Shown: in pieces, positions 1 to 17,162 of the stretch
How positions within the stretch are numbered: the first letter of the stretch is position 1
Layout: every line of letters starts with the position of its first letter
Virus record (IMG/VR): IMGVR_UViG_2529292906_000014
Location: 1 to 47,310 of that record
Source: a virus
Lineage: Duplodnaviria > Heunggongvirae > Uroviricota > Caudoviricetes
Reading direction: 5' to 3' (one strand)
DNA: 47,310 nt
Program-made: the position numbers and the translations under genes
Notes under the pieces: model-generated
What the model was told of the DNA's origin: nothing
Seen by the model: the letters and a program-made list of their open reading frames with translations, nothing else
Database searches by the model: none

Positions 1-1254
1 ATGCTGGAACAAATGGGCATTGCCGCGAAGCAAGCCTCGTATAAATTAGCGCAACTCTCCAGCCGCGAAAAAAATCGCGTGCTGGAAAAAATCGCCGATG
101 AACTGGAAGCACAAAGCGAAATCATCCTCAACGCTAACGCCCAGGATGTTGCTGACGCGCGAGCCAATGGCCTTAGCGAAGCGATGCTTGACCGTCTGGC
201 ACTGACGCCCGCACGGCTGAAAGGCATTGCCGACGATGTACGTCAGGTGTGCAACCTCGCCGATCCGGTGGGGCAGGTAATCGATGGCGGCGTACTGGAC
301 AGCGGCCTGCGTCTTGAGCGTCGTCGCGTACCGCTGGGGGTTATTGGCGTGATTTATGAAGCGCGCCCGAACGTGACGGTTGATGTCGCTTCGCTGTGCC
401 TGAAAACCGGTAATGCGGTGATCCTGCGCGGTGGCAAAGAAACGTGTCGCACTAACGCTGCAACGGTGGCGGTGATTCAGGACGCCCTGAAATCCTGCGG
501 CTTACCGGCGGGTGCCGTGCAGGCGATTGATAATCCTGACCGTGCGCTGGTCAGTGAAATGCTGCGTATGGATAAATACATCGACATGCTGATCCCGCGT
601 GGTGGCGCTGGTTTGCATAAACTGTGCCGTGAACAGTCGACAATCCCGGTGATCACAGGTGGTATAGGCGTATGCCATATTTACGTTGATGAAAGTGTAG
701 AGATCGCTGAAGCATTAAAAGTGATCGTCAACGCGAAAACTCAGCGTCCGAGCACATGTAATACGGTTGAAACGTTGCTGGTGAATAAAAACATCGCCGA
801 TAGCTTCCTGCCCGCATTAAGCAAACAAATGGCGGAAAGCGGCGTGACATTACACGCAGATGCAGCTGCACTGGCGCAGTTGCAGGCAGGCCCTGCGAAG
901 GTGGTTGCTGTTAAAGCCGAAGAGTATGACGATGAGTTTCTGTCATTAGATTTGAACGTCAAAATCGTCAGCGATCTTGACGATGCCATCGCCCATATTC
1001 GTGAACACGGCACACAACACTCCGATGCGATCCTGACCCGCGATATGCGCAACGCCCAGCGTTTTGTTAACGAAGTGGATTCGTCCGCTGTTTACGTTAA
1101 CGCCTCTACGCGTTTTACCGACGGCGGCCAGTTTGGTCTGGGTGCGGAAGTGGCGGTAAGCACACAAAAACTCCACGCGCGTGGCCCAATGGGGCTGGAA
1201 GCACTGACCACTTACAAGTGGATCGGCATTGGTGATTACACCATTCGTGCGTAA
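1..1254 (+). CDS. proA: gamma-glutamyl phosphate reductase (glutamate-5-semialdehyde dehydrogenase)
   Basis: 417-aa ORF whose translation I recognise as enterobacterial ProA; ends 115 nt upstream of thrW, the known proA-thrW arrangement. Confidence 0.95.
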
Positions 1255-11629: not shown

Positions 11630-12625
11630 GTGACCGTGAGAGCACTACTGACCCCTGAAATTGCCCCGCGTATGGGGATCGTATTGTTCAGACCAGGTTC
11701 AGAGCTGATGCCCCTGTTTATGCAGGGGCGTGTCCTGCTGGAGCCTGAGCCGGAACGTTATTCATCTTTCGCCAGTGGTGCCGTTCCGGCGGCATCACAA
11801 CCGCTGGCGGATGATCCTGCCGTACGGGCCGTGTTCCGCAATGAGGCAGTGATCCGTCGTGCTGGTGGCGTGGAATGTCTTGAAAGCTGGTTACTTCGTG
11901 AAAAAGGCTGCCAGTGGCCTCATTCCGACTGGCACAGCGAGAACATGACAACAATGCGACACGCGCCGGGCGCAATCCGTCTGTGCTGGCACTGCGATAA
12001 CCAGCTGCGCGATCAGTTCACGGAACGGCTGGAATCAATGGCAACGGATAACTGTGCCCGCTGGGTGTTGTCTGTTGTGCGTCGGGATCTCGGTTTTGAT
12101 GACAGTCACGTTGTGACAATGCCGGAACTGTGCTGGTGGCTGATTCGTAATGACCTGGCGGATGCCTTACCGGAAAGTGCAGCCCGTAAGGCACTGAGAT
12201 TACCGAAGCCTGTTGTGCCGTCTGTCACCCGGGAAAGTGACCTTGTGCCTTCGGTTCCTGCCACCAGCATCATCCAGGATAAGGCGAAAAAGGTGCTGGC
12301 GCTGAAAGTGGATCCGGAGTCGCCGGAGTCTTTTATGTTACGCCCAAAACGTCGCCGCTGGGTTAATGAAAAGTACACGCGCTGGGTTAAGACACAGCCG
12401 TGTGCATGTTGTGGAAAGCCCGCTGATGATCCCCACCACCTGATAGGTTACGGTCAGGGTGGAATGGGAACAAAAGCGCATGACCTTTTTGTGTTGCCTT
12501 TGTGCAGAAAGCATCACGACGAGCTGCATGCGGATACCGTGGCATTTGAAGAAAAGTATGGCTCCCAGCTGGAGCTGATATTTCGTTTTATCGATCGCGC
12601 GCTGGCAATTGGCGTGCTGGCCTGA
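11630..12625 (+). CDS. DUF968 family protein with C-terminal Cys/His-rich nuclease-like motif
   Basis: GTG start; C-terminal CACCGKPADDPHHLIGYGQGGMGTKAHDLFVLPLCRKHHDELH. Confidence 0.7.
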   Translation: MTVRALLTPEIAPRMGIVLFRPGSELMPLFMQGRVLLEPEPERYSSFASGAVPAASQPLADDPAVRAVFRNEAVIRRAGGVECLESWLLREKGCQWPHSDWHSENMTTMRHAPGAIRLCWHCDNQLRDQFTERLESMATDNCARWVLSVVRRDLGFDDSHVVTMPELCWWLIRNDLADALPESAARKALRLPKPVVPSVTRESDLVPSVPATSIIQDKAKKVLALKVDPESPESFMLRPKRRRWVNEKYTRWVKTQPCACCGKPADDPHHLIGYGQGGMGTKAHDLFVLPLCRKHHDELHADTVAFEEKYGSQLELIFRFIDRALAIGVLA

Positions 12626-12640
12626 TTTTTTCGGAGAAAG

Positions 12641-13006
12641 GTGATGCGTGATATTCAGATGGTTCTGGATCGTTGGGGAGCATGGGCGGCGAGTGATAGT
12701 TCAGGAGTAGATTATTCTCCTATAGCTGCTGGGTTTAAAGGGCTTCTTCCCTATACAAGCAAAACACGTCAGGCTTGTTCAGATAGTGATGCATTAATTA
12801 TTGAAGGTTGTCTTGCACGTCTAAAGCAAAAAAGACCTGATGAGCATTCGCTTCTTGTGGCACATTATTTATACAGAATATCCAAGCGTAAGATTGCAAA
12901 GGCGCGTGGAAAGGATGAGAAACTAATACGCATTGAGATACAGATGGCTGAGGGGTTTATTGATGGATGCCTTTCAATTCTGGATGTTAAACTTGAAATG
13001 GATTAG
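12641..13006 (+). CDS. Q: late gene antiterminator Q
   Basis: 121 aa, MMRDIQMVLDRWGAWAA...IAAGFKGLL...AEGFIDGCLSILDVKLEMD typical of the small Q family; directly upstream of the late region. Confidence 0.85.
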   Translation: MMRDIQMVLDRWGAWAASDSSGVDYSPIAAGFKGLLPYTSKTRQACSDSDALIIEGCLARLKQKRPDEHSLLVAHYLYRISKRKIAKARGKDEKLIRIEIQMAEGFIDGCLSILDVKLEMD

Positions 13007-13012
13007 TGAAAC

Positions 13013-13030
13013 CCCGGCTTAAGCCGGGGA
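13013..13030. terminator. 18-bp GC-rich perfect palindrome between convergent Q and NYN genes
   Basis: CCCCGGCTTAAGCCGGGG; contains the NYN stop codon; weak flanking T-runs. Confidence 0.4.
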
Positions 13031-13894
13031 TGTTTCAGATTGAAGTGTTTTTTTCTTGGGCTCGTTCTTAGATGATTTTGTTTTCTTTTGACGATTGAGT
13101 TTTTTCTCTTTGCGTCTGTCAATATAATCGTCCCACCAATCAGGTTTTACTGTTGGGACGATTCTGCAAATATCAGCAATTGCAACAACAATGTTGCTCG
13201 ATTGCACTCCATCGACGTGCTCTGCCAGTGAGGGAGGAACTTGTTGGTTCATTGGATCGAGGATAAAATCCACACCCTTTATACGGGCATGTTTAGCGGC
13301 AGGAACGAAATCAGCATCGCCAGCAATCAGGACGATCACATCAACTAGTTTCTCATGAGCAAGGATAGTTATATCCATACCAAGCTTAATATCGACGGCT
13401 TTTTGTTTATATTCGTAGTAGAAATCGTCGTTAGTTAACTCAGACCATTGAATTTCATTACGTAATAGTTTCTTAAGAGTATGTTCTTTTATTTGCCAGT
13501 TACCGACGTTTGAAAGAATACCCATACGAAGTGCCGTTTTACGATTCTTCCTTAGCTCCTCATGAAGCTTGTTTCGTAAAACATTCGGAGCATGTGTCTT
13601 GAAGTTTTTAGTTGATGGGGTTTTGTTGTCTCCATCAGGCAAAGGATACTTAATCTGTTTATCAAGCGGCGGGCAGTCGTAATAGTAAATACGGTAAAGC
13701 TCAAGTGGTTCACGGTCAGCGTGAGCACCATGTGGAACCTCTACATGAAATTTAACAATTCGCCAGATTATTTTAACAAGTTGTTGGCTGTCTAACTCAT
13801 GCCCAGGGAAATGTTTTCGTAGAAAGTAATCAATCCGACGGATGAAGTAGCCGCCGTCAATCAAGACTGCTGTTTTCTTCATTGAAAAACTCAC
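13019..13894 (-). CDS. NYN-domain (PIN-like) putative ribonuclease
   Basis: 291 aa; NYN hallmarks KKTAVLIDGGYF and VIVLIAGDADFVPAAKHARIKGVDFIL; Lys-rich C-terminal tail; antisense to the surrounding late operon. Confidence 0.8.
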   Translation of the reverse strand: MSFSMKKTAVLIDGGYFIRRIDYFLRKHFPGHELDSQQLVKIIWRIVKFHVEVPHGAHADREPLELYRIYYYDCPPLDKQIKYPLPDGDNKTPSTKNFKTHAPNVLRNKLHEELRKNRKTALRMGILSNVGNWQIKEHTLKKLLRNEIQWSELTNDDFYYEYKQKAVDIKLGMDITILAHEKLVDVIVLIAGDADFVPAAKHARIKGVDFILDPMNQQVPPSLAEHVDGVQSSNIVVAIADICRIVPTVKPDWWDDYIDRRKEKKLNRQKKTKSSKNEPKKKTLQSETSPA

Positions 13895-13971
13895 AAAAAA
13901 AGCTCAGAACCGTTGAGTAGACCCTAAATATTATCTACGAACAGTGCTGAGCTGGTGACGCAATAATTAAC

Positions 13972-14063
13972 TATTGACATTTGCGTTGTCAACAAATTTT
14001 GCACTGTTTAAATGTAAATTTTTTCTGCTGTCAACATATAGTGTCATCTTTGGCATGTTGACA
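13972..14063. promoter_or_regulatory. cluster of TGTCAACA/TGTTGACA motifs in the NYN-late operon divergent region (candidate operator and late promoter region)
   Basis: TTGACA at 13974, TGTCAACA at 13987 and 14029, inverted copy TGTTGACA at 14056. Confidence 0.35.
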
Positions 14064-14135
14064 CTATATAAACGCTTACGCGGTCCGCAAAAATAATTGT
14101 ATCATGTTAAGAGTGGTTACTTCGACTCCTTCCTT

Positions 14136-14161
14136 AAAACCGCAGTTGAGCGGTTTTTTTG
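14136..14161 (+). terminator. intrinsic terminator, candidate tR' of the late operon
   Basis: Hairpin AAACCGC-agttga-GCGGTTT followed by T7. Confidence 0.6.
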
Positions 14162-14258
14162 TACCTGTAAACCTGGTGCAGTACAGTAAACACGCTGGTG
14201 GTCGTGAATACTGGCTTTTTATCTTGCTGGCTTTTTAGACAAGAGTTATTGGTATGTC

Positions 14259-14486
14259 ATGTTAACCAGAAGGGAAAAAGACATGCTAAAACAGCAAGAT
14301 ATGACAGAAACCGCCGCCGTAGTCCTTCATTTCCTACCTGCTGACAAGTGGGTAACGCCACGCATGATGACGAGAACTACCGGAGTAAGCGAAGCCCGGT
14401 GCCAGTTAATACTGACTCAGTTAGTTCTGGCGGGTCTGGCGAAGGATAACGGCGGGTACGGGAATAAATTCAGACGCTGCCAGTAA
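14259..14486 (+). CDS. small hypothetical protein (75 aa; alternative start at 14283)
   Basis: ORF between tR' and the methyltransferase; AAGGGA precedes the internal ATG at 14283. Confidence 0.4.
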   Translation: MLTRREKDMLKQQDMTETAAVVLHFLPADKWVTPRMMTRTTGVSEARCQLILTQLVLAGLAKDNGGYGNKFRRCQ

Positions 14487-14636
14487 TGGCGGTTTCCTGC
14501 TGTGAAAATGGGCGGCTGGTGGGTGTTGGTAGCACCTGCCAGCCATTCGCTCATGCTTACTGGTCACAAGCGAACCACGGCCCACTGCTTTAGCGCAAAA
14601 GCAGAGTGAGCCTACCAGAGTTACGCTTACTGATCC

Positions 14637-15689
14637 ATGAAAAATACTGTAAAAATAAACAGTGTTGATTTAATCAACGCTGATTGCCTGCATTTTATTC
14701 AGTCCCTGCCTGATGATTCCATTGACCTGATTGTTACCGATCCGCCGTACTTCAAGGTGAAACCCAACGGCTGGGACAATCAGTGGAAAGGGGACGAAGA
14801 TTACCTTAAGTGGCTGGACCACTGTCTGGCCCAGTTCTGGCGGGTGTTAAAACCTGCCGGAAGCCTTTACCTGTTCTGTGGGCATCGCCTGGCATCTGAT
14901 ATTGAGATCATGATGCGTGAACGTTTCAACGTGCTTAACCATATCATCTGGGCGAAGCCGTCCGGACGTTGGAATGGGTGTAATAAAGAAAGTCTGCGCG
15001 CATATTTTCCTGCCACAGAGCGCGTTCTGTTTGCTGAACATTACCAGGGGCCATATCGCGGCAAAAGTGACGGCTATGCGGCAAAAGAAAGGGAACTCAA
15101 ACAGCACATAATGGCACCGCTGATATCGTATTTCAGGGATGCTCGTGCCGAACTGGGTATAACGGCAAAACAAATTGCCGAAGCCACAGGTAAGAAAAAT
15201 ATGGTTTCCCACTGGTTTGGTGCCAGTCAGTGGCAGTTGCCGAATGAGGCTGACTATCGGAAGTTACAGGCACTGTTTTCCCGTATAGCGGCAGAGAAGT
15301 TTCAGGAACAACAACTGGAACAACCACACCACCAGCTGGTGGCATCTTATGATTCACTGAATCGCAAATATTCTGAATTGCTGGATGAGTTTAAATCTCT
15401 CCGGCGCTATTTCTCCGTATCAGTCTCCGTGCCTTATACCGATGTCTGGACGCATAAGCCCGTTCAGTTCTACCCGGGTAAACATCCGTGCGAGAAACCG
15501 GCGGATATGCTCCGGCAAATAATCAATGCCAGTAGTCGACCTGGTGATCTGGTTGCTGATTTTTTTATGGGCTCCGGTTCCACAATAAAAGCAGCAATGG
15601 CGTTGGGGCGTCGGGCCTTAGGTGTTGAGCTTGAGTCAGAGCGGTTTAACCAGACAGTGAAAGAGATAAACGAGCTGGTGGGGAAATAA
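14637..15689 (+). CDS. DNA methyltransferase, beta-class N6A/N4C (motif IV before motif I)
   Basis: 350 aa; N-terminal DPPY (LIVTDPPYF), C-terminal AdoMet motif [13 protein letters not shown]; first long gene of the late operon. Confidence 0.85.
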
Positions 15690-15849: not shown

Positions 15850-15892
15850 ATGAACCGCCCCGGGTTTCCTGGAGAGTGTTTTATCTGTGAAC

Positions 15893-16783
15893 TCAGGCTG
15901 CCAGATCATCGTTTCCGATGGAAGCATAATAAGCTTTTTCTGCTTCTGCCGGAGGAGTATGGCCCAGCCTTCCCAGCAATCGTCGATTGTTATACCAGTC
16001 CACCCACGTTAGTGTGGCCAGTTCCACTTCTGCACGGTTTTTCCAGCTCTTACGGTGTATTACCTCCGCTTTGTAAAGACCATTGATGCTCTCAGCCATC
16101 GCGTTGTCATACGAGTCGCCTGTACTCCCTGTTGATGCCAGTAATCCGGCTTCTTTTAGTCGCTCCGTATAGGCCAGTGACACATACTGAGAGCCTTTAT
16201 CGCTGTGATGGATGGTGCCAGACGGACGACGGGCCCACAACGCCTGCTCCAGCGCATCCAGCACGAATGTCGTTTCCATAGACGATGAGACCCGCCACCC
16301 CACGATGTATCCGGCAAACACATCAATGATAAACGCCACATAGACGAAGCCCTGCCATGTGCTGACGTAAGTAAAATCAGCCACCCACAGCTGGTCAGGA
16401 CGTTCTGCCACGAACTGACGGTTTACGCGGTCACCTGTGGCAACGGTTTTCCGGCTGACGGTAGTGCGGACCTTTTTACCCCGGAGAACACCGGCAAGTC
16501 CCATAACCGCCATGAGGCGCGCCACTGTACATCTGGCCACCCTGATTCCTTCCCGTAACAACTGACGCCAGACTTTACGCACACCGTACACCTGATGATT
16601 TTCATCGTATACGCGCTGTATCTCTCTCTTCAGCCAGTCGTCGTGCTGCGCACGGGCACTGCGTTTATCCGGATGATGTCGCTGTTGCTGACAATGGTAA
16701 TACGTTGACGGGGCAATATGCAGTTCGCTGCATACCGGTCCGACCCCGTACTGCTCACGCAGCTTATCCAGCAGTGGCATCAT
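15893..16783 (-). CDS. IS3-family transposase OrfB (DDE integrase domain)
   Basis: 296 aa with DDE-type catalytic region (WVADFTYV...[10 protein letters not shown]...HSDKGSQY...DNAMAES); overlaps orfA at a run of A's. Confidence 0.85.
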
Positions 16784-17106
16784 TTTTTCCAGAGGCGGTC
16801 GAACTCCGCCTTCGCAAAATAAGCGGAAGCCTGGCGAAGGATATCGTTACTGCGGCGCAGTTCACGATTTTCACGTTCCAGCTCTTTCAGACGCTGACGT
16901 TCAGCGGTGGTGAGCCCACCATCACCGCCCCCGGTATCCCGCTCATGCTGGCGAACCCAGACACGCAGAGTCTCCGGCGTACAGCCAATCTTTGGGGCAA
17001 TGGAACAAATTGCCGCCCACTGTGAGTCATATTCATCCTGACTTTCCAGAACCATACGAATCGCCCGCTGACGGACTTCGGGGGAAAAACGAGTATTTTT
17101 AGTCAT
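16780..17106 (-). CDS. IS3-family transposase OrfA (HTH)
   Basis: 108 aa [22 protein letters not shown]... with leucine-zipper-like C-terminus; I recognise this as IS629-type OrfA. Confidence 0.85.
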
Positions 17107-17162
17107 CCTGTTTACCTCTTTCTCAGGGAGTTTAGTCTCCAGGATTTCCGGGGCGGTTCATC

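Follow-up and report, generated by a model that had tools for sequence, protein, structure and literature searches.

The main new result of this analysis is the architecture of an accessory cassette, in which a promoter, a palindrome, a leader RNA and a gene encoding an NYN-domain nuclease succeed one another. The window, i.e., the whole stretch of DNA that was analyzed, comprises 47,310 nucleotides of a tailed-phage record (IMGVR_UViG_2529292906_000014), and all positions given below refer to it. We consider it reasonably probable that the locus is an autonomous accessory cassette (a "moron") lodged between the antiterminator gene Q and the late promoter pR', from which an NYN RNase would be expressed in the lysogen under the control of its leader, for exclusion or abortive infection. 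The cassette is constituted of a predicted sigma-70 promoter with its -35 box inside a TTGACA-N7-TGTCAA palindrome, of a 5' leader of ~60 nt that folds into one long hairpin of three tiers with a U-run behind it, of a Shine-Dalgarno sequence with a 287-aa NYN endoribonuclease whose acidic active site is intact, and of a hairpin common to NYN and to the convergent Q gene. The hairpin-terminator leader located between promoter and start codon is the most informative feature of the locus.

The NYN Gene and Its Active Site

The open reading frame extends at most over positions 13019-13894 of the minus strand, i.e., 291 aa counted from a GTG, and this was the length given in the first-pass annotation. 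The gene is intact and convergent to Q, as had been proposed there; its length is probably 287 aa, the predicted NYN-domain ribonuclease gene covering 13019-13882 with an ATG start at 13882. This ATG is likely the true start and the GTG at 13894 an unlikely one, because RefSeq protein WP_000750482.1 starts at the ATG, because an MKK/MKR N-terminus is found in 30/30 aligned homologues, and because the GTG sits at the 3' edge of the U-run of the leader terminator.

The Pfam NYN profile (PF01936) matched residues 109-212 with 39 bits for a cut-off of 24.2 (E = 1.4e-9), and among the matches listed it was present in all of 120 homologues, barring two fragments. The prophage protein presents the PIN-like / flavodoxin-like NYN fold together with the acidic metal-binding set of these enzymes (N-terminal DG motif, KxxD, GDxDF). 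Residues D9 (IDGG), D164 (QKAVD), D170, D189 and D191 (AGDADF) are unchanged in all 30 sequences compared, whose identity goes as low as 41%. Profile and alignment both bear out the catalytic Asp residues that were to be confirmed, and the prophage protein is predicted to be a nuclease with an intact acidic active site.

A PDB sequence search with the NYN protein gave no match, and PADLOC-DB 2.0 gave no significant one (HEC-09, E = 4.5e-4, and "NYN" PDLC01154, E = 4.9e-4, each over ~47 residues). HEC-09 is similar in being a suspected defense RNase with an NYN domain. It differs by an N-terminal HTH-like domain and by its location inside Hma loci, and its match to the prophage NYN is marginal and partial. 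Also, HEC-09 is the one NYN candidate tested elsewhere, and it gave no protection against any phage assayed. KHNYN, N4BP1 and Regnase-1 are NYN/PIN-like RNases of animal antiviral RNA decay. In contrast to these proteins and to MARF1, the bacterial NYN has an insertion of ~90 residues and a basic C-terminal tail, and the KH, zinc-finger and LOTUS partner domains of the eukaryotic NYN RNases are absent from it.

The gene does end in an 18-bp perfect palindrome, CCCCGGCTTAAGCCGGGG, with arms of 9+9 (13012-13029, both strands), as noticed in the first-pass annotation. This palindrome overlaps the last NYN codons including the stop, lies 6 nt past the Q stop, and folds with -17.2 kcal/mol (z = -4.8). 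It is predicted to be a bidirectional terminator-type hairpin common to the convergent Q and NYN transcripts. GC-rich hairpins were found at the equivalent place behind Q in cdtI, PhiR40_1, ETEC4079 and Edwardsiella. As the U-runs at the hairpin behind Q are weak, the efficiency of termination there is only presumed.

The Leader RNA

The leader RNA (13894-13954, minus strand), of ~60 nt, combines a three-tier hairpin with a downstream U-run, and 11 nt separate its 3' end from the start codon; it is predicted to be an intrinsic terminator or attenuator. Its fold has an energy of -23.5 kcal/mol (z = -4.4). For 16 distinct homologous leaders, RNAalifold returned 17 pairs, with compensatory changes in 13/17. 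Paired cells amounted to 96.7% in the real leaders vs. 83.2% in shuffles, the real value being reached by 0/500 of them, and fell to 26-44% when the partners were slid. Judged from these alignments, the covariation is strong. The covariance model built on the leader scored 77.9 bits at the window locus vs. 21 bits on the antisense strand. It gave a single strong match per locus, directly upstream of NYN, in 35 loci, and an NYN homologue is encoded at every one of them; loci devoid of NYN gave zero matches.

The leader accompanies nearly all NYN family members examined, across phyla, despite complete sequence turnover. In all leader classes, hairpin and U-run end 4-46 nt before the start codon, and all members examined have the terminator after the promoter and ahead of the Shine-Dalgarno sequence. 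The chromosomal homologues of Rhodanobacter and Dyella, which have no obvious mobile context, present a simpler hairpin only. Class A leaders (such as that of the window) and class B leaders were analyzed apart; a joint MAFFT alignment misaligned the two. Many class B leaders with weak U-runs escaped a strict hairpin screen (at least 5 T in 9) and were recovered by inspection. The leader could also be simply a strong terminator which damps expression.

A comparable RNA exists in Staphylococcus aureus, namely TEG147 (Rfam RF03535). Both are 5' hairpins of ~60 nt with internal loops and then a U-run, and the staphylococcal copies are placed directly upstream of an NYN ORF. The difference is that the class A leader of the window falls outside RF03535, with no match even at E = 10, and is devoid of the AGUA/GAA loop. 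Class B leaders matched RF03535 over the full length of the model with 35-41 bits, below the gathering score of 56.1, and they have a conserved unpaired AGUA...GAA, a motif which in TEG147 is a sarcin-ricin loop according to a JAR3D prediction. As the window leader stays below the RF03535 threshold, it is to be described as a structural and positional analogue and not as a TEG147 member; it is probably a distant homologue of TEG147.

In staphylococcal contigs, RF03535 copies of 86-89 bits immediately precede an intact NYN ORF, a location of TEG147 that this analysis shows. In S. aureus, the leader is retained and the NYN ORF has decayed to a remnant. Teg147 has been catalogued as a 60-nt bona fide sRNA, detected in S. 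aureus (PMC5826253). The literature that we found on Teg147 gives no function and makes no mention of a link with an NYN gene. If our reading is right, the S. aureus sRNA Teg147 / RF03535 would be accounted for, as an NYN leader. In the Rfam scan of the window region, the leader was unmatched and the only match was a weak one to STnc130, over tR' on the minus strand (25.5 bits vs. 55).

Promoter, Palindrome and Motif Cluster

Three copies of TGTCAACA/TGTTGACA lie upstream of NYN, at 13987-13994, 14029-14036 and 14056-14063. Over the whole window the motif occurs 4 times vs. 2.15 expected, which is not significant alone; three copies inside 77 bp are far beyond chance. Also, TTGACA hexamers are depleted across the window (17 vs. 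31.8 expected), and 4 of these 17 fall in 90 bp. The cluster reported in the first-pass annotation was thus found again with its three copies; they are not equivalent sites, copy 1 being part of the palindrome of the proximal promoter and copies 2 and 3 of a distal block.

The proximal NYN promoter P1 (13963-13992, minus strand) was predicted by a promoter scan with 10/12 matches. It consists of a -35 box TTGACA (13992 to 13987), an 18-nt spacer and a -10 box AATTAT (13968 to 13963), which, with this spacer, is weak in the window. The start site is predicted at ~13956, at the foot of the leader hairpin. A P1-like geometry (TTGAC(A/G), 16-18 nt, TAnnnT) was observed in 28 distinct homologous upstream regions, across which the -10 box ends ~10 nt 5' of the hairpin. 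On the basis of sequence comparison, NYN cassettes are predicted to bring their own sigma-70-like promoter.

Copy 1 of TGTCAACA and the TTGACA at 13974 together make up the TTGACA-N7-TGTCAA palindrome (13974-13992, both strands), which surrounds and overlaps the P1 -35 box and is a candidate operator. About 60% of the distinct homologous upstream regions, among them those of Pseudomonas and of distant class B loci, have the pattern TTGAC-N5-9-GTCAA (at most 1 mismatch) at a distance of 107-117 nt 5' of the ATG, and the -35 palindrome recurs in homologous cassettes of other hosts and slots.

The distal block (13995-14097) was kept only among the versions of the cassette in the Q slot, i.e., those of E. 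coli, Edwardsiella and locus L038. It contains copy 2 (TGTCAACA) and copy 3 (TGTTGACA), which are only partly conserved in the Edwardsiella and L038 versions, as well as an 11-bp inverted repeat, ATATAGTGTCA/TGACACTATAT (14036-14046 and 14059-14069), whose position is constant in the three versions and whose arm sequences differ. A second NYN-sense promoter, P2, is tentatively proposed at 14097-14105 (minus strand) from the extended -10 TGATACAAT; at this position TGATATAAT is read in Edwardsiella and TGCTATAAT in L038, both of them perfect TGnTATAAT. The candidate P2 overlaps the putative pR' -10.

The Slot, Its Borders and Its Cargo

On the left, the slot is bordered by the antiterminator gene Q (12641-13006, plus strand), which belongs to the Q21-type family (Pfam PF06530, Phage_antitermQ, E = 8.9e-52). 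In sequence it matches the structures of phage 21 Q (6p18/6jnx) only weakly (E = 0.0065), and the window Q is only distantly related to 21Q. On the right, the putative late promoter pR' (14100-14125, plus strand) comprises a -10 box TATCAT (14100-14105) and the conserved initial transcribed block GTTAAGAGTGGTTACTTCG. A TAnnnT hexamer is present directly 5' of GTTAAGAG in six phage variants with differing cargo. The homology shared with phages of the same Q type starts at 14065-14104, and that with a phage of another Q type only at 14147. We infer that the late promoter is located to the right of the motif cluster, at ~14100-14125. It had been suggested that part of the cluster was the late promoter; this did not hold, the putative -10 lying beyond the cluster and being followed by tR'. 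The QBE of phage 21 is made of direct repeats TGAGCA spaced 8 bp, between -35 and -10 (PMC6606751), and repeats of this type were not found upstream of the putative pR' -10.

Downstream of pR', the terminator and the small ORF that had been announced upstream of NYN were both found. The former is a tR'-type intrinsic terminator (14138-14165, plus strand) with AAAACCGCAGTTGAGCGGTTTTTTT at ~14138-14162, conserved in cdtI, PhiR40_1, mEp460, SfV and Stx2c phages. The latter (phrog_331, plus strand, 14259-14486, or 14283-14486 in RefSeq, 67-75 aa) stands at the head of the late region. Because relatives without NYN also have it, it is assigned to the phage backbone, outside the NYN cassette. The prophage of the window also carries an IS inside its holin gene.

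In the same Q-pR' slot, related phages carry other antisense cargo. An empty site, with Q directly followed by pR', was sought in relatives and none was found, each one examined having antisense cargo. These comparisons point to the Q-pR' gap as an interchangeable cargo slot. PADLOC, Pfam and PHROGs searches on the alternative cargo genes returned only DUF6731 and phrogs of unknown function; therefore, the slot would be at most a candidate defense hotspot. The slot had also been equated with the position of the stx toxin genes, which is not the case, as stx genes lie downstream of pR'/tR' in sense orientation. Antisense accessory genes are already known from the interval between Q and the late promoter. 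For example, the order in DLP12 is quuD, nmpC (minus strand) and essD, and the lc porin gene of PA-2 is an antisense moron between Q and the lysis genes. DLP12 nmpC resembles the present locus by the succession of Q (+), accessory gene (-) and lysis genes (+), and by being an autonomous unit variably present among relatives; it differs in that a porin is encoded there, and here a cytoplasmic NYN nuclease with a conserved leader-terminator RNA.

The NYN gene was detected in 27/5426 complete E. coli genomes (0.5%), and IS1 interrupts the ORF in 3 of these 27 copies. In the window, the ORF has its full length, and many unrelated strains carry a copy with 100% identity to it. As is typical of morons, the gene is variably present among close phages, between conserved backbone genes, and has its own sigma-70-like promoter and a 3' hairpin, both predicted. 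The idea of a lone insert under its own control agrees with this predicted promoter, with the rarity of the gene in E. coli and with the other cargo of relatives; the gene does not belong to a syntenic core, and its acidic residues are not replaced.

In Edwardsiella, an 86%-identical copy of the cassette is found behind a lambda-type Q, with 230 bp of upstream sequence conserved. In ev099, E212, Proteus phage Brookers and Brenneria, the homologue follows cI immediately and is read from the cI strand, an arrangement counted in at least 34 loci overall; further sites are beside integrases, ahead of gpJ and at the DinI/gtrABC end. Some homologues occur in chromosomal contexts without a clear prophage. 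The family is very large: at 90% identity, its close subfamily forms >3000 clusters and the wider one >8000, and members are known from at least 544 species genomes. rexAB and BstA are the known residents of the cI-N slot, which has been described as a mosaic hotspot with abortive-infection systems (PMC8585504). Downstream of cI and on the same strand, NYN homologues fill the very slot of lambda rexAB and BTP1 BstA. They are unrelated to RexAB and BstA in sequence and in fold, and they have their own promoter with a preceding terminator, and not merely the shared pRM.

Proposed Function and Alternative Explanations

We hypothesize that NYN transcription would be independent of Q and would take place in the lysogen. 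The majority of transcripts would end at the leader terminator, giving a discrete small RNA, and NYN would be encoded by read-through transcripts only, so that the level of the nuclease would be low or conditional. The protein would act as a metal-dependent RNase, and its likeliest role would be superinfection exclusion or abortive infection on behalf of the lysogen. Considering the slots occupied by NYN genes, such an RNA-targeting role is plausible. Several of these steps are inferred: expression in a lysogen carrying this prophage, the efficiency of leader termination, the cleavage of RNA by the protein together with the choice of targets, and the action against phages. Expression from the repressed prophage has indirect support only, from the homologous Teg147 RNA detected in S. 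aureus. To our knowledge, no anti-phage phenotype is known for the prophage NYN family, and our literature search on the NYN domain with prophage, defense or exclusion gave no functional study of this family. If the proposal is true, a large uncharacterized bacterial NYN family would gain a defined genetic architecture and a regulatory partner. The Q-pR' gap of this phage group would be, like the cI-N slot, a place for new exclusion genes, and a prophage NYN gated by a structured RNA would parallel the animal antiviral NYN/PIN-like RNases and provide a compact experimental system.

A refinement that is compatible with this best explanation is a type III-like toxin-antitoxin or abortive-infection pair, in which the abundant terminated leader RNA would bind and neutralize the NYN RNase and a drop in transcription would free the nuclease; we regard it as possible and rather doubtful. 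The trigger would be phage takeover or loss of the prophage, upon which transcription of the cassette would fall and the RNA would decay. We are also skeptical that non-repetitive pairs of this kind occupy prophage accessory slots of Proteobacteria, Firmicutes, Bacteroidota and Acidobacteria, with Teg147 as a surviving antitoxin. The order of ToxIN is promoter, small RNA, intrinsic terminator and endoribonuclease gene. The same order is found here, the intrinsic terminator standing between the RNA and the endoRNase gene, and carriage by mobile elements is shared with ToxIN and AbiQ/antiQ; an abortive-infection logic is plausible for NYN. The pairing of the leader with nearly all NYN members examined, across phyla, points in the same direction, as do unpaired leader motifs that exceed the needs of termination (AGUA...GAA in class B), the S. 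aureus leader persisting as an expressed sRNA beside a decayed NYN ORF in the fashion of an orphan antitoxin, and the IS1 insertions in 3/27 E. coli copies, which are consistent with a costly gene. However, no tandem or direct repeats are present in 13883-14100 and each locus has a single leader copy, a single hairpin, whereas all type III antitoxins that we know of are tandem repeats. Moreover, NYN is PIN-like and does not have the ToxN/AbiQ fold, and co-inheritance of leader and gene is equally expected of a plain cis-regulatory element. Such pure cis-regulation, with the leader as an attenuator or as an autoregulatory target cleaved or bound by NYN, would leave to the nuclease an RNA processing of housekeeping or lysogenic-conversion type, without defense. 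A stem-loop of the Regnase-1 mRNA is a target of Regnase-1 itself, Rfam files TEG147 under "Cis-reg", the terminator separates promoter and Shine-Dalgarno sequence in all members, and homologues also exist in chromosomes without a clear prophage. We nevertheless hold this explanation to be improbable, since the NYN genes of viral contigs occupy prophage accessory slots known for exclusion genes and the gene is patchy in E. coli.

Two further explanations were considered. That NYN is a lytic-cycle gene, for degradation of host mRNA or processing of phage RNA, with the TGTCAACA cluster as a Q-dependent late promoter or QBE, appears very unlikely to us. NYN does adjoin Q and pR', copy 3 abuts the block common to Q21-type phages from 14065, and the putative P2 and pR' -10 overlap. 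Nevertheless, the gene runs antisense to the early-right and late units, with a hairpin between it and Q, and the motifs lie at least 50 nt upstream of the putative start site, unlike the phage 21 QBE (PMC6606751). Copies 1 and 2 were considered as pR'/QBE elements, and this assignment is largely refuted: relatives with the same Q and pR' block have no TGTCAACA motifs, and copy 1 and the palindrome accompany NYN, both in cI-N slots and in a phage whose Q is of lambda type. The other explanation, a decaying passenger without function, would fit the rarity of NYN in E. coli, the IS1 insertions in 3/27 copies, the remnant in S. aureus and the IS in the holin gene of the window prophage; we find it scarcely credible. 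The ORF is full length and identical in many unrelated strains, and catalytic residues, leader and promoter are intact and evidently constrained across phyla, a pattern of conservation that argues for function.

Gene layout and the NYN protein

The window corresponds to a lambdoid prophage of E. coli, and its region 12600–14700 is 100% identical to E. coli strain CREC-629. In gene order, RusA, KilA-N and DUF968 precede Q (12641–13006, plus strand; Pfam Phage_antitermQ, E = 9e-52), which is convergent to the NYN ORF (13019–13894 as longest reading, minus strand). A non-coding stretch of 364 bp separates this ORF from a small ORF (phrog_331), itself followed by an N6/N4 DNA methyltransferase gene and then by the lysis genes. 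The ORF, palindrome, motif copies, terminator and small ORF described in the first-pass annotation were all found where it had placed them; its interpretation of these elements was only partly supported. The proposed 291-aa product starts at a GTG located at the 3′ end of a terminator-like hairpin's U-run, and the start was corrected to the ATG at 13882 (MKK...), used in RefSeq and in 30/30 aligned homologues.

The protein matched Pfam NYN above the curated cut-off, as well as PHROG 5783, a family of unknown function (E = 8e-109). Residues D9, D69, D164, D170, D189, D191, D205 and D224 were invariant in a 30-sequence alignment with identity down to 41%, the invariant aspartates being located within the IDGG, QKxVD and AGDxDF motifs, and the AlphaFold model was confident (pLDDT 89.6). 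This profile match, these aspartates and this model place the protein in the NYN family by its sequence, predicted fold and active-site residues, and the initial proposal of a NYN nuclease with catalytic aspartates is upheld at the level of a predicted RNase. The close family comprises 3231 clusters (E 1e-5 or better). With a query from the Clostridia branch, at least 8000 candidate relatives were found among the matches listed, and relatives are encoded by at least 544 species-level genomes.

Two other observations concern the window itself. Relative to CREC-629, a 1310-bp IS3-family insertion sequence (15851–17160; orfA 16780–17106 and orfB 15893–16783, both on the minus strand), which we take to resemble IS629/IS1203, lies inside the holin gene essD, its junctions overlapping by 3 bp; the prophage is therefore probably lysis-defective. 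Also, the sole tRNA of the window, a tRNA-Thr (CGT) at 1369–1444, may mark the prophage attachment site or host flank.

An exchangeable cargo between Q and the late promoter

The NYN gene is present in only 27 of 5426 complete E. coli genomes. In phages with these same flanks, Q (left) and the late region (right), the gap between Q and the late promoter pR′ is filled by other antisense genes: a DUF6731 gene plus a phrog_8552 gene in cdtI and ETEC4079, and a 308-aa gene in mEp460_4F5. An antisense gene of unknown function occupied the gap in every relative examined (DUF6731 + phrog_8552; phrog_3152; 308-aa ORF; loci L002 2930–4318, L003 2994–3440, L004 2930–4162 and L008 2026–2952), and no empty site was found among them. 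The NYN gene is an exchangeable cargo and not a core gene, as its first description as an insert had implied. The alternative cargo genes gave no match to known defence models; they could code for further accessory or exclusion functions. DLP12, with the order quuD, nmpC (minus strand), essD, offers a precedent for an accessory gene lying in antisense orientation behind Q and ahead of the lysis genes. The slot had also been likened to the position of the stx genes. These lie downstream of pR′ and its terminator tR′ in sense orientation, and the two positions are thus not equivalent. Each cargo ends behind Q in a GC-rich hairpin. For NYN this hairpin corresponds to the 18-bp palindrome (-17.2 kcal/mol, z -4.8), consistent with a terminator acting in both directions on the convergent transcripts.

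In phages of the same Q type carrying a different cargo, homology to the window starts between 14065 and 14104, and in mEp460, which has another Q type, only at 14147, inside the terminator. A TAnnnT hexamer stands directly 5′ of a conserved GTTAAGAGTGGTTACTTCG block in six variants (TATCAT at 14100–14105 in the window), and the terminator (14138–14162) follows some 25 nt later. As read from the sequence, this layout is the one expected for a putative pR′, a short transcript and tR′. The putative -10 box of pR′ lies to the right of the motif cluster, part of which had been suspected to be the late promoter. No Q-binding element was identified, the TGAGCA repeats of phage 21 being absent; the Q of the window and 21Q are only distant relatives. 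At 14128–14264 on the minus strand, antisense to tR′ and to the start of the small ORF, the Rfam model of the Salmonella sRNA STnc130 gave a full-length but sub-threshold match (25.5 bits for a gathering score of 55, E = 0.41).

Predicted promoter and leader RNA of the NYN gene

Three copies of TGTCAACA/TGTTGACA are found within 77 bp, for four in the whole 47-kb window, and 4 of the 17 TTGACA hexamers of the window fall within 90 bp; their clustering near NYN is clearly non-random. Comparison of the upstream regions across all NYN homologues revealed a constant architecture, with a sigma-70-type promoter made of TTGAC(A/G), a spacer of 16–18 nt and TAnnnT. In the window, the -35 box TTGACA reads from 13992 to 13987 and the -10 box AATTAT from 13968 to 13963 (minus strand). 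This -35 element usually coincides with one arm of a palindrome, TTGAC-N5-9-GTCAA; about 60% of distinct sequences have it 107–117 nt ahead of the ATG, among them Pseudomonas loci and distant loci whose leader belongs to class B, the second of two sequence classes. Since the window version reads TTGACA-N7-TGTCAA (13974–13992), the first copy of TGTCAACA is one palindrome arm and doubles as the -35 box when read on the minus strand. The palindrome looks like an operator, as a candidate only.

The second and third copies fall within a distal block (13995–14097) kept only among the three versions of the Q slot (E. coli, Edwardsiella and viral contig L038), with incomplete conservation of the motifs themselves. 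An inverted repeat at 14036–14069 is present in all three with differing arm sequences; in the window it is a perfect 11-bp repeat, ATATAGTGTCA(12 nt)TGACACTATAT (14036–14046 / 14059–14069), which suggests a putative second structured element or binding site. Also, an extended -10 sequence, TGATACAAT, overlaps the TATCAT hexamer on the opposite strand, and the other two versions have a perfect TGnTATAAT at its position. This could, tentatively, represent another promoter in the NYN sense.

A long hairpin follows about 10 nt past the end of the -10 box, so that the predicted transcript begins at the hairpin foot. The hairpin (13954 to 13901, minus strand) consists of three stacked helices with small internal loops and a 10–12-nt apical loop. 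Seven consecutive U (13900 to 13894) come next, then a Shine-Dalgarno sequence and the ATG. The hairpin fold (-23.5 kcal/mol, z -4.4) is conserved: RNAalifold on 16 distinct class-A leaders, the class of the window, gave 17 pairs, with compensatory double changes at 13. On the fixed structure, 96.7% of cells are paired; shuffling reduces this to 83.2%, with 0 of 500 shuffles attaining the original value, and sliding the partners lowers pairing to 26–44%. Three features assign the structure to the NYN-sense RNA: its G-U pairs, the U-run, and covariance-model scores of 77.9 bits in sense versus 21 bits in antisense on the window leader. Of 51 loci scanned, 35 contained exactly one strong match (60–83 bits) and all 35 encode a NYN homologue; no strong match occurred in NYN-less loci. 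The distance from match to ATG was about 10–16 nt where coordinates were compared, and about 35 nt in one locus (L084). The more distant NYN members (39–46% identity) carry class-B leaders of the same topology, with conserved GGCAGUA(A/C)G ... GCCGA(A/C)CC loops, in Beta- and Gammaproteobacteria, Acidobacteria, Bacteroidota and Clostridia.

Relation of the leader to Teg147

Class-B leaders matched Rfam RF03535 (TEG147, "S. aureus small RNA", Rfam type Cis-reg) over the full length of the model at 35–41 bits, below the gathering score of 56.1. The class-A leader of the window gave no match to this model and is therefore not assigned to it. Scanning metagenome contigs with the TEG147 consensus yielded 22 loci, four of which (L205, L188, L189, L204) reached 86–89 bits when re-scanned, above the gathering score. 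In two of the 22 (L205 590–1330, and L188), an intact NYN ORF (MEKVAILVDGG..., 56% identical to a Clostridia NYN) begins 19 nt past the element. By tblastn, none was found in the remaining 20, which include the S. aureus-type contigs L189 (3471–3600) and L204 (6747–6806); translation of L189 showed the ORF reduced to a 14-codon remnant, IDKVAILIYGVFIN*. The S. aureus sRNA Teg147 is thus the leader of a NYN gene, a link not mentioned in the literature examined on Teg147. It was described in strain HG003 as a bona fide sRNA of 60 nt (PMC5826253), located on a genomic island (PMC3053349), with an internal loop predicted as a sarcin-ricin motif (PMC13085918). In vivo, a homologue of the leader thus exists as a discrete small RNA, which supports the view that most transcripts would stop at the leader terminator.

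Possible functions of the cassette

An 86%-identical NYN copy is found in Edwardsiella prophages, likewise antisense in the Q-holin interval, behind a Q of the lambda family (PF03589). Homologues of 55–60% identity (phages ev099, 2B8 and E212, Proteus phage Brookers, Brenneria prophages) lie directly downstream of cI, on the same strand and before N, a gap known as the classical home of rexAB and BstA (PMC8585504), and 48 Stx2a phages encode a 59%-identical homologue. Against a small reference set, 34 of 99 loci could be assigned to the cI-downstream group and 25 to the Q-convergent group; when unclassified loci were checked with Pfam, further cI-downstream cases emerged, along with integrase-adjacent, pre-gpJ and DinI/gtrABC-end positions.

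Very probably, the locus is an autonomous, Q-independent cassette in which an intact NYN gene is preceded by a promoter of its own and a leader terminator, with the late promoter to its right. It combines known kinds of elements: a prophage moron, a NYN RNase and a TEG147-like leader. The spread of homologues over prophage accessory slots is the main, indirect argument for an accessory function expressed in the lysogen. From gene position and analogy, we tentatively consider that this function might be RNA-targeting exclusion or abortive infection, in line with the abortive-infection or RNA-targeting role first suggested. This reading is weakened because PADLOC returned no real match for NYN, HEC-09, a NYN candidate tested elsewhere, gave no protection, and no functional study on NYN with prophages, defence or exclusion was found in the literature.

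A type III-like toxin-antitoxin system, in which the terminated leader would be the RNA antitoxin of NYN, is attractive but appears rather unlikely. The leader does accompany nearly all family members examined, across phyla, its loop motifs are conserved beyond the needs of termination, and it persists as an sRNA where the NYN ORF has decayed. IS1 insertions in the ORF of 3 of the 27 E. coli copies point the same way; however, neither the tandem repeats nor the ToxN-type fold that define known type III systems were found here. The exclusion or abortive-infection reading is retained, tentatively, and the conserved RNA-RNase pairing is the unexpected, testable feature of the cassette.

These IS1 copies (L209, E. 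coli F5505-C1, 527–1224; also hits H112 and H116) lie early in the ORF and remove the N-terminal catalytic aspartate, which may hint at a costly gene or be due to chance. In a Pseudomonas genome (L160, 1432–1615), a C4 antisense RNA and its a1/b1 target sites, of the P1/P7 immunity type, were matched at 83.6 and 48.6 bits, both above the gathering score, about 1 kb upstream of the NYN cassette; this locus is therefore a P1/P7-like prophage immunity region. Also, a viral contig (L101) showed a Pistol ribozyme match at 914–976 (minus strand; 35.7 bits for a gathering score of 34.5), some 2 kb upstream of the NYN gene in that contig.
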